Source: a virus
DNA length: 27,363 bases
Reading direction: 5' to 3' (one strand)
UHGV virus genome: UHGV-0044886
Shown here: one piece after another, positions 1 to 27,363 of the stretch
Layout: every line of letters begins with the position of its first letter
Position numbering within the stretch: the first letter of the stretch is position 1
Made by a program: the position numbers and the translations under genes
Notes under the pieces: model-generated
Database searches by the model: none
Told to the model about the DNA's origin: nothing
The model's input: only the letters and a program-made list of their open reading frames with translations

Positions 1-52
1 CGGTGGAGCTGCATGACAAAGTCATCGGGCATTATCTGAACATAAAACACTA

Positions 53-220
53 TCAATAAGTTGGAGTCATTACCCCATATGACGATAATATTTCGTTATA
101 TTCTTCAATAAGAGCTTTTCTTGTTTCCACTGAATTACAATCTACCTTCGAAAAGTCAACTTCATCAGCAAAAACATTAAATGTTAAAAAGGAAAGCACT
201 AAAAACAAACGAATCAGCAT
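53..220 (-). CDS. small secreted peptide (55 aa from internal ATG; signal peptide MLIRLFLVLSFLTFNVFA then ~37-aa mature peptide), function unknown
   Basis: ORF track gives 53..238. The ATG at 220 has a GGAG RBS, whereas the ATG at 238 sits 3 nt after the upstream ORF stop with no RBS. AT-rich, tandem with the 242..373 ORF. Confidence 0.4.
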   Translation of the reverse strand: MLIRLFLVLSFLTFNVFADEVDFSKVDCNSVETRKALIEEYNEILSSYGVMTPTY

Positions 221-241
221 AAATCCACTCCTACGCATGGA

Positions 242-373
242 TTAATAGTCATTGATCGCAAAGGCGTAAACTTGCCAAAGGTATTTCGTATAATCGGTAC
301 AAATCTCCTTTACGCTTGATGCTGCATTAACAGTCCCAGCCATAAATAATAACGATAGTAATAGTTTTCTCAT
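242..373 (-). CDS. small secreted peptide (43 aa; predicted Sec signal peptide MRKLLLSLLFMAGTVNA then ~26-aa mature peptide), function unknown
   Basis: ATG at 373 preceded by AGGTGAGG RBS on minus strand; stop TAA at 242-244; hydrophobic N-terminus with an AxA-like cleavage site; region is ~30% GC. Below the 60-aa cutoff of the ORF track. Confidence 0.35.
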   Translation of the reverse strand: MRKLLLSLLFMAGTVNAASSVKEICTDYTKYLWQVYAFAINDY

Positions 374-469
374 TATAACCTCACCTGCCTTATAACCCAT
401 TTAGGGTACATATTTTCGCCTTTAAAAAAAAGAGGTTATTAGATCCAATTGTGTATTTATTAAGCAGAT

Positions 470-486
470 AATGCTCTAATAAATTT
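470..486 (+). promoter_or_regulatory. C1-type repressor operator (AATGCTCTAATAAATTT) upstream of the immI-like operon
   Basis: Seen directly; near-identical 17-mers recur at 2140, 16035 and 19556, each upstream of a plus-strand transcription unit. Matches the P1 C1 operator consensus ATTGCTCTAATAAATTT as I remember it. Confidence 0.6.
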
Positions 487-649
487 GTATTTTTAAGTCA
501 CGAATGCTATCTTTTCGCATCATATTGACCTTTTAATCGTTCAGGCTTATAGTTCCGCCGTCGTAGCAAATTCTGCGACCGGGTTTAGCAGCCTGAATGA
601 TTGTGCGGACAGCCGCAGATATCCGATATTGCGGTATTTTTGTGTCCGT

Positions 650-760
650 AAAACCGCGTTACGCCCAAATTATGGTGGGGCGTGATGGGGAGGCTTCGGC
701 CTGCTGGTTTCACAATCGCCAGTCTGCTAACCCCGTCACGTCCTGCCACCTGTTTAGCAG
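650..760 (+). ncRNA. c4: candidate c4-type antisense RNA region (boundaries approximate)
   Basis: Lies between the operator/promoter and icd, where P1 encodes c4. The 8-mer TCACAATC (710-717) is perfectly complementary to GATTGTGA (783-790) immediately 5' of the icd RBS. A stem CTGCTAA/TTAGCAG sits at 724-760. Ends not determinable from sequence alone. Confidence 0.3.
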
Positions 761-800
761 CGGGTAGCAGGTTGTTAAACCTGATTGTGAGGCCGTAACT

Positions 801-1022
801 ATGGTTAATGCCAATCCTTGCGCACGCCCAGAATTCATCTGGCGTTTCTATTCCTGTAAAAAACACCACTATCACTTCGTTATCGCAGCAACTGAAGACG
901 AAGCACGCTCTCAATTGCCTGATGGCCCCTGCATTTTTACTGCCCGTTTTTCAACTAACTCGCGCAATTCACTTAGTTACTGGAGCCTCCCCTTCTCTGC
1001 CGACGTTCAGGGGCGTTTATGA
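801..1022 (+). CDS. icd: Icd-like small protein (73 aa), translationally coupled to ant
   Basis: 73-aa ORF whose stop (TGA 1020-1022) overlaps the ant ATG (1019) in an ATGA arrangement; position and size match P1 icd. Confidence 0.5.
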   Translation: MVNANPCARPEFIWRFYSCKKHHYHFVIAATEDEARSQLPDGPCIFTARFSTNSRNSLSYWSLPFSADVQGRL

Positions 1023-2062
1023 AAAAACCTCTCGTCACCCGTAATGACATAGCCGAAGCGATCGCCCTGCATACTGCCTGTATACCGACACGGGAGATCC
1101 CCGGCGCAATTGCCAACTATTTCATGATAACCAGGCGTTTTTATACCCGAACAGATAAGGCTGTGATCAACAGGCTACTGATAGCCGAGATCAGGGATTA
1201 TTTGATTGAACAAGGACGTCTACGTTACGCAACGGTGGCAGCAGAAATGAGAAAGGAGGCACATAGAATGACCAGTAATAATTTGAATGTTAAAAAACCA
1301 GCACCTGTTGCTTCAGCAACGCCAGCACCAGCCGTGAATGTCATCCCCACCACCGGAGACACAATCGACAGCCTGACACTGTTAAAGATGGTCAATGAAG
1401 CGCGTAAGTTATGTGGGGAACCAGAGGTTCGGAACAACAAATTCATCGAAAAAATACTCGACGAATTAGAAGGTGAGGACGGTTACACAAAAAGTGCAAC
1501 CGTGCCGCCAGGTGGCGGTACGCCTATGGTTGTCATAACCATGACCTACAAACAAGCCCTGCGAGTCGCCGCGCGCGAATCGAAAGCGGTCCGCCGTTCG
1601 CTGATCGACAAACTGGAAGAATTGCAGCAGGCAAACTCCCCTACCCCATCGATCCCCCAAACATTACCAGAAGCCCTACGCCTGGCTGCCGAGTTGGCAG
1701 AACAGAAATTGCAGCTGGAACAACAGCTGGTGGCCGCAGCCCCTAAAGTCGATTTTGCCGACCGGGTATCAGTGGCTAATGGAATCCTGATCGGGAACTT
1801 TGCAAAGGTCGTTGGACTTAAGCAAAACGCCCTTTTCTCATGGTTGCGCCAGAACGGCATTCTCATGGCTTTTGGTGCGCGCAAAAACGTACCGCGCCAG
1901 CAGTACATTAACGCCGGGTATTTCACGGTGAAAGAAGTGGTGCTGGATGATGAAAATGGCTACCAGATACGGCTGACGCCCCAATTAACGGGTAAAGGCC
2001 AGCAGTGGTTAACTCGCAAGCTACTTGATGCTGGTTTGTTAAAACCAGTAGCAATAGGTTAA
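1019..2062 (+). CDS. ant1: phage antirepressor Ant (N-terminal domain plus C-terminal KilAC/ANT-type domain)
   Basis: 347 aa; the C-terminal ~110 aa (QTLPEALRLAAELAEQK...GKGQQWLTRKLLDAGLL) is paralogous to the C-terminus of the next ORF (kilA), the typical antirepressor C-terminal domain. RBS AGGGG upstream. Confidence 0.8.
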   Translation: MKKPLVTRNDIAEAIALHTACIPTREIPGAIANYFMITRRFYTRTDKAVINRLLIAEIRDYLIEQGRLRYATVAAEMRKEAHRMTSNNLNVKKPAPVASATPAPAVNVIPTTGDTIDSLTLLKMVNEARKLCGEPEVRNNKFIEKILDELEGEDGYTKSATVPPGGGTPMVVITMTYKQALRVAARESKAVRRSLIDKLEELQQANSPTPSIPQTLPEALRLAAELAEQKLQLEQQLVAAAPKVDFADRVSVANGILIGNFAKVVGLKQNALFSWLRQNGILMAFGARKNVPRQQYINAGYFTVKEVVLDDENGYQIRLTPQLTGKGQQWLTRKLLDAGLLKPVAIG

Positions 2063-3901: not shown

Positions 3902-4177
3902 TAGATTGCTCTAATCTGGAGTCACCTGGCGTTTTCAGTATGGATTTTCTTTGGCGCGGTCTGGCCATTAGGGATCATGTTTGCTGCAACATTTCTTCTG
4001 ATGTGGATATTCACCCTTCCCGGTGATTTCTATAGAAAAAAAGCCAGACATTGATACAATCATTGCGGGTGCTTGAGGCTATCTGCTTCAGGCATTACCC
4101 GAAAAGCAGATAGAAGAAAGCCCCAGATAACATTACGCGTCCTGCAAGACGCTTAACATTAATCTGAGGCAATATCT

Positions 4178-4384
4178 ATGCTTAGCATACGTAGATTAGC
4201 CTCTTACCGACCAAAAGGTCAAGGAGAAGCAGGCTATGAAGCAGCAAAAAGCGATATTAATCGCTCTGATCGTCATCTGTTTAACCGTCATTGTGACGGC
4301 ACTGGTAACGAGGAAAGACCTCTGCGAGGTACGAATCCGAACCGGCCAGACGGAGGTCACTGTCTTCACAGCCTACGAATCTGA
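4178..4384 (+). CDS. mok-like overlapping reading frame (modulator of hok translation)
   Basis: 68-aa ORF in a different frame that overlaps almost all of the hok-like ORF, the classic mok/hok architecture. Confidence 0.45.
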   Translation: MLSIRRLASYRPKGQGEAGYEAAKSDINRSDRHLFNRHCDGTGNEERPLRGTNPNRPDGGHCLHSLRI

Positions 4385-4391
4385 AAGGTAA
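4236..4391 (+). CDS. hok: Hok/Gef-family type I toxin (51 aa membrane peptide)
   Basis: Translation MKQQKAILIALIVICLTVIVTALVTRKDLCEVRIRTGQTEVTVFTAYESER closely resembles E. coli Gef/HokC as recalled (MKQHKAMIVALIVICITAVVAALVTRKDLCEVHIRTGQTEVAVFTAYESE). AGGAGAAG RBS. Not in the ORF track because it is under 60 aa. Confidence 0.8.
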   Translation: MKQQKAILIALIVICLTVIVTALVTRKDLCEVRIRTGQTEVTVFTAYESER

Positions 4392-24867: not shown

Positions 24868-27323
<2,456 letters not shown>

Positions 27324-27363
27324 CTTACTGATTTAGTGTATGATGGTGTTTTTGAGGTGCTCC

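Follow-up and report, generated by a model that had tools for sequence, protein, structure and literature searches.

The AT-rich left end of the window, by which we mean the whole 27,363-nucleotide stretch of the virus genome UHGV-0044886 that was analysed, carries a damaged copy of an already known operon, the sim operon of phage P1. Positions 75-471 very probably represent the promoter-proximal end of this operon in a P1-like plasmid prophage, wherein the first gene, simA, is vestigial and the second gene, simB, is cut by IS1; the identity of the locus, its junctions, its truncations and its variability are all demonstrated here. The features of the locus, given in window coordinates, are the following.

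1-74, plus strand: terminal 74 bp of IS1, the IRR end (...GGAGTCATTACC), identical at 74 of 74 nucleotides to IS1 copies in many records
75-83: CCATATGAC, right-hand copy of a 9-bp target-site duplication in simB, a single copy in P1 (L001 2494-2502)
53-220, minus strand: simB'::IS1 fusion ORF of 55 aa, from alignment with P1 SimB and intact 105-aa homologues; PGAP calls the same ORF WP_001569404.1
228-232, minus strand: AGGAG, Shine-Dalgarno sequence of simB, 7 nt upstream of ATG 220, read from the sequence
242-373, minus strand: simA, 43 aa plus stop, with a 17-aa signal peptide and a 26-aa tail; three amino acid differences from P1 SimA
379-385, minus strand: GGTGAGG, Shine-Dalgarno sequence of simA, 5 nt upstream of ATG 373, read from the sequence
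438-464, minus strand: predicted sigma-70 promoter PsimA at the equivalent position, mapped over from P1 48108-48134 (a prediction)
470-486, plus strand: Oc4 (Op51), C1 repressor operator, AATGCTCTAATAAATTT; P1 annotation 48140-48156
525-553, plus strand: P1c4 (P51b), promoter of the immI operon and not part of sim; P1 annotation 48195-48223, TTGACC-17-TATAGT in the consensus scan

By DNA comparison, window 75-1100 was found to be 96.5% identical to P1 47745-48769 and 99.8-99.9% identical to many P1-like plasmids typed as IncY or IncHI1B; the alignment with P1 is gap-free, and P1 coordinates are converted into those of the window by subtracting 47670. The P1 record (AF234172) annotates the sim operon at 46786-48070 with all genes on the minus strand (simC 46786-47580, simB 47573-47908 and simA 47912-48070), and in the same region also Oc4, the c4 promoters, C4 RNA, icd and ant1/2. 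Because the P1 annotation places the sim genes there, the ORF 373->242 is simA and the ORF 220->53 begins as simB. Leftwards from Oc4, the order in intact P1-type elements is simA, simB and simC, and the window copy lies directly left of Oc4 and c4-icd-ant and is transcribed away from both. The island had been placed next to an immunity region in the initial annotation, and this is borne out by Rfam matches to C4 RNA at 668-753 and to the c4-a1b1 targets at 547-599, followed by the immI genes icd (801-1022) and ant1 (1019-2062) of a P1-like prophage. A simple consensus promoter scan of the window recovered neither PsimA nor PsimB, both of which are predicted in the P1 record.

Besides the DNA identity, the locus shares with P1 simABC the same slot leftwards from Oc4/c4 and an equally low GC content; SimA is substituted at 3 of 43 residues and matches phrog_3933 with E = 5e-21, and codons 1-49 of SimB are identical at the protein level. 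In contrast to the window copy, in which IS1 cuts simB after codon 49, P1 has simB whole and simC, the demonstrated effector, contiguous with it. The sim or 'superimmunity' locus, when cloned, excludes superinfecting P1 (Devlin 1982, Kliem & Dreiseikelmann 1989 and Maillou & Dreiseikelmann 1990, as cited in PMC2409434 and PMC8546580), and SimC, the Sim protein, is described in the work cited there as a processed, exported periplasmic protein reported to block superinfecting P1 after adsorption (cited in PMC2409434, PMC8546580). By CRISPRi, simA, simB and simC were all found non-essential and dispensable in lytic growth (PMC10695390).

Several descriptive points of the initial annotation hold for this locus. 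The contrast in base composition is genuine (33-35% versus 49% GC), although the figure of about 30% given for the island was slightly too low: GC amounts to 34.8% over 50-420, 33.0% over 75-471 and 30.0% over 421-560, against 49.0% over 561-27363, and by piece to 42% (1-74), 32% (75-244), 36% (242-373) and 33% (374-560). No other 346-bp stretch in the window lies under 38.2%, and therefore the low-GC island is real. The two consecutive minus-strand ORFs, 373->242 (43 aa) and 220->53 (55 aa), are present as described, each with a good ribosome-binding site (GGTGAGG and AGGAG, respectively) and with a single Cys in the predicted mature part of 26 or 37 residues. Their N-termini are signal-peptide-like under a crude home-made rule (a charged n-region, a hydrophobic h-region of 10-15 residues and small residues at -3 and -1), which is passed by 9 of the 299 ATG-started frames of at least 40 aa in the window, both of these neighbours included. 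The predicted signal peptides read MRK / LLLSLLFMAGT / VNA|A for SimA and MLIR / LFLVLSFLTFN / VFA|D for SimB. The complete 43-aa SimA is MRKLLLSLLFMAGTVNA followed by ASSVKEICTDYTKYLWQVYAFAINDY, the mature part beginning ASSVKEIC..., and the 55-aa ORF encodes MLIRLFLVLSFLTFNVFA followed by DEVDFSKVDCNSVETRKALIEEYNEILSSYGVMTPTY, the mature part beginning DEVDFSKVDC.... In intact P1-type elements, SimA, SimB and SimC all have Sec-type signal-peptide N-termini.

The second ORF had been taken as a native 55-aa gene, which does not hold: its C-terminal six residues (VMTPTY, residues 50-55) and its TGA stop come from IS1, to which window 1-74 belongs in its entirety with 100% identity, and only codons 1-49 (window 220-75) are true simB, comprising the 18-aa signal peptide, an N-terminal segment and a single helix. 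The breakpoint lies between 74 and 75, with P1 homology beginning at 75, and the IS1 transposase frame on the plus strand ends at window 59 (IS1A transposase CDS, equivalent position in NZ_CP061756.1). A proposed third ORF, starting at the ATG at 32 on the minus strand, is an artefact, because it is located wholly inside the IS1 end and runs antisense to the 3′ end of the transposase gene.

Intact SimB has 105 aa counted from ATG 220, the start used by PGAP in six intact plasmids, and 111 aa in the P1 record; in the window no full-length simB exists, the IS1 end taking over past codon 49, and the fusion ORF matches phrog_14329 over positions 1-51 of 105. An AF2 model of intact SimB, built from a 5-sequence alignment (mean pLDDT 84, pTM 0.71), predicts a helix at residues 31-48 and four antiparallel strands within 52-102, and Cys28 and Cys70 are invariant across the SimB family. 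Because the whole four-stranded sheet and Cys70 are lost, the window SimB cannot form the predicted cystatin-like domain and, ending at residue 49, by this model cannot fold as SimB. In fold only, with modest scores and no sequence similarity, intact SimB may resemble periplasmic binders of the cystatin-like type, for instance Cmi (2xgl), the immunity protein against colicin M, whereas the window SimB is left without any sheet.

The SimB family is small, with 12 clusters at 90% identity, and an exhaustive profile search of 1.84 billion proteins yielded 29 representative clusters, none of which contained relatives with an informative annotation. Searches of SimA, SimB and SimC against Pfam, NCBIfam and PADLOC returned no significant family, the matches at this level being sub-threshold only (TcpS for SimB and tRNA_anti-like for SimC). 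Two further proteins, P0014 (143 aa, from an ENA contig, with a precomputed TcpS Pfam match) and P0022 (266 aa), join the first 44 SimB residues or a SimB-like domain to unrelated C-terminal parts, and are further mosaics on the same exported N-terminus.

Complete relatives reveal what was inserted at the breakpoint. NZ_CP034659.1 carries a 3,242-bp unit (L005 5833-9074) consisting of an inverted IS1, a pseudogene, ysgD, corA and IS1; each of its outer IS1 ends is immediately bordered by CCATATGAC (at L005 5824-5832 and at the position matching window 75-83), and beyond the left IS1 come the 3′ half of simB and then an intact simC. Given that CCATATGAC stands at both ends of the composite and occurs once in P1, an IS1 composite transposon has been inserted into simB; only the right copy of the 9-bp duplication falls inside the window. 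Like Tn9-like IS1 composites, the element shows the terminal inverted repeat GGTAATGACTCC..., a 9-bp target duplication and, in the complete relatives, two IS1 copies bracketing captured genes (corA and ysgD), but its cargo is a chromosomal Mg/Co transporter gene instead of a resistance gene, and the window, unlike the complete composites, retains merely 74 bp of one IS1 copy at that junction.

The exact 55-aa fusion protein was found in 171 contigs (404 index blocks), most of which stop in IS1 as the window does; three run further, all of them into IS1-corA, and two of these three continue through ysgD-IS1-simC-pmgC. In NZ_CP061756.1, the part left of IS1 has been remodelled by IS26. Within the window, tblastn with SimC (259-264 aa) gave no match, and simC does not directly follow simB; relatives with the same junction carry it beyond the 3.2-kb transposon; further IS1 sequence in the window was limited to a 54-bp end at the right edge.

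The first gene is truncated as well, in a manner common to P1. SimA covers only positions 1-41 of the 213-position phrog_3933 profile, and at the same place phage Ro157c2YLVW encodes the 215-aa gp35, which matches P1 SimA exactly over 36 residues and can be aligned through '..ESMR'. SimA aligns with residues 1-47 of long forms (215 aa in Ro157c2YLVW and 179 aa in GCA_053108235.1), the TAA stop of the window and P1 sits where the long forms have GAA (Glu), and similarity ends right after SMR; the window/P1 frame reads MRK...YAFAINDY-TAA-SMRRSGF-MLIR(simB). GCA_053108235.1 (L006), a more divergent P1-like contig, has an operon of the 179-aa long SimA, a SimB-like protein (59% identity) and a SimC-like protein, followed downstream by pmgC, tub, pmgB and sit. 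The long SimA proteins of phrog_3933 have in common with the short form the first position in the cassette, the signal peptide and ~30 residues at the start of the mature part (65% and 54% identity), and differ from it by 130-170 further residues, including a second Cys, which are missing in the window and P1 version with its stop at codon 44. Searching a word index for homologues of the 43-aa SimA yielded just three short proteins and missed the long forms, which were recovered through DNA homology and gene context.

Judged from these alignments, the simplest history would be that a long first gene lost its body by deletion, keeping its promoter, ribosome-binding site, signal peptide and ~26 residues. 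Among six P1-type copies, simA has five amino-acid-changing variable codons and no synonymous one (small numbers), and simB has two amino-acid-changing and two synonymous variable codons over 106 codons; the simA pattern appears consistent with relaxed constraint. Other short SimA variants with different tails were also seen (P0002 and P0003), and in CP148519.1 (L008) a frameshift breaks a long simA homologue into two ORFs (2290-2616 and 1968-2261), which is another independent decay of the cassette's first gene.

The start codons of both genes deserve correction. The P1 record starts simA at window 400 (52 aa) and simB at window 238, neither of which has a ribosome-binding site, and ATG 238 is in the simA frame, one codon past the simA TAA; strong Shine-Dalgarno sites precede the internal ATGs at 373 and 220, which PGAP uses. 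Because the upstream ATG 400 reads ATT in one copy, that of plasmid pEA4_97 (L011), ATG 373 is the better simA start. The P1 reference record probably places the start of simA 9 codons, and that of simB 6 codons, too far upstream.

Based on these findings, we propose that the window copy arose in two steps. First, an old deletion common to P1 would have spared only the first ~47 codons of a first gene of 180-215 aa, a TAA replacing the Glu codon and a 43-aa 'SimA' remaining. Second, a recent IS1 insertion entered simB after codon 49, duplicating CCATATGAC and leaving a 55-aa ORF that ends in IS1, with the 3.2-kb IS1-corA-ysgD-IS1 composite being the inserted element in complete relatives. simC, if kept in the source genome, would then lie more than 3 kb of transposon away from the sim promoter, which may still drive the making and export of the 26-residue SimA tail and the 37-residue SimB'-IS1 peptide. 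It is likely that neither peptide acts, and this sim copy is most likely inactivated. Because simC, if present, is uncoupled from the operon, Sim-mediated exclusion by this copy is probably lost or weakened, while simC expression could persist through transcription outward from IS1 or from an internal promoter. As the contig counts given above indicate, the IS1::simB allele is common and thus not obviously deleterious.

The simA ORF and its ribosome-binding site are intact in every P1-type copy examined, and such universal retention could have a reason, for example translational coupling into simB. One alternative accordingly regards simA as a retained leader ORF that loads ribosomes and couples translation into simB and simC, perhaps with a regulatory site, and we consider this unlikely. 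In line with it, the simA stop lies 21 nt before the simB ATG with the simB Shine-Dalgarno sequence in between, P1-type copies conserve the ORF and its ribosome-binding site even as the encoded peptide drifts in sequence, and an ArgR box is predicted, by the account in PMC2409434, exactly at the P1 simA/simB junction (P1 47906, window ~236), with two more inside simC. However, simB carries its own strong Shine-Dalgarno sequence, so coupling is unneeded, and for the window copy a leader role is moot because the downstream gene is broken. P1 'SimA' is best viewed as what remains of a longer exported protein rather than as an independent accessory factor.

The slot occupied by the damaged sim operon is variable across P1-like genomes. 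The c4-icd flank was found in ~600 plasmid records (451 at >=80% coverage), among which P1-type simA plus simB is carried by 137 and the simA head only by 128 (junctions at window 234, 258 and 334), and in the remaining flank-bearing records the match begins only at 472, at Oc4. Matches of P7, RCS47 and SJ46 to the window also start at 472; because homology with P7-type elements starts there, Oc4 forms the right-hand edge of the variable cassette. The P7-type cassette holds an allelic position between Oc4 and LPsit/pmgC and likewise encodes two exported proteins leftwards, but these, the Upf50.5 lipoprotein and Upf50.0/DUF5384, are unrelated in sequence to sim. The region simABC has already been listed among eight variable low-GC regions of P1-like phage-plasmids (PMC9603915), and the suggestion of horizontally acquired, variable cargo is thus upheld by the comparison and was published before. 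P7 Upf50.5 (L003 1696-2217) has a sub-threshold match to TraT, a surface-exclusion lipoprotein (23.1 bits versus a cut-off of 31), which hints that the slot may generally be home to envelope-located exclusion functions.

The junctions behind the simA head, at window 334, ~293, ~284, 258 and 234, bear on a further idea, namely that the promoter, ribosome-binding site and signal peptide of simA (window ~295-471) serve as a fixed expression and export adaptor for swapped periplasmic exclusion modules, and that the leftover SimA tail and SimB helix peptides keep some activity, for example as decoys for the periplasmic machinery of an incoming phage. We regard this combined idea as decidedly improbable.

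Only a very slim chance is given to the reading of the initial annotation that the two ORFs are purpose-built small exported peptides which themselves serve in exclusion or immunity, act like bacteriocins or inhibit a periplasmic target. The good ribosome-binding sites and signal-peptide-like N-termini of both ORFs, the open simA in all P1-type copies and the wide spread of the truncated simB allele could be expected of such peptides; however, the end and stop of the second ORF belong to IS1 and the intact 105-aa alpha+beta domain is lost, simA corresponds to the opening 47 codons of the gene for a 179-215-aa protein and its variation is exclusively non-synonymous, no double-glycine leader, transporter or immunity partner accompanies the pair, and no Pfam, NCBIfam or PADLOC family is matched. 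Thus purpose-built peptides, bacteriocin-like or otherwise, are not what the locus encodes: one ORF is the stump of a longer gene and the other an IS1-truncated simB. The designation as a superinfection exclusion or immunity factor is right by ancestry, through P1 simABC, but SimC, the demonstrated effector, is absent from the window.

An assembly artefact at the IS1/simB junction, in which a contig end had collapsed onto a repeat, would suit a window that starts and finishes in IS1 ends, as short-read contigs broken at repeats do, but the same junction occurs in many independent assemblies and identically in two closed plasmids with the matching 9-bp duplication at the other side of the composite, and this extremely improbable explanation was rejected as ruled out by the target duplication in the closed plasmids.

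The apparent pair of secreted mini-proteins is therefore a known locus damaged by an insertion sequence, and the present analysis is mainly a correction, its new points lying only at the level of annotation: simA as a stump, the corrected starts and the widespread IS1-corA allele. A widespread lineage of P1-like plasmids, in which Sim exclusion is probably lost or weakened, can be recognised by the corA-carrying IS1 composite in simB, and the truncated copy is of no help toward how SimB and SimC block P1 DNA entry.

Other features were noted elsewhere in the window. Its right end (27310-27363) is an IS1 end too, of the IRL side and 96% identical, and P1 homology stops at P1 75826, within the final ~9 codons of the tail-stability gene 7, a short distance upstream of gene 24. 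The 27-kb window, having an IS1 end at either edge, is therefore an inter-IS1 segment of a prophage that is probably defective. Downstream of repL, at 4067-4391, lies a hok/sok type I toxin-antitoxin module, with an Rfam sok match at 4067-4241 and a 51-aa Hok-like ORF from 4236 that is annotated as hokD in NZ_CP061756.1. Three tRNA genes on the plus strand (20238-20310, 20316-20388 and 21823-21895) are as expected for a P1-like genome.
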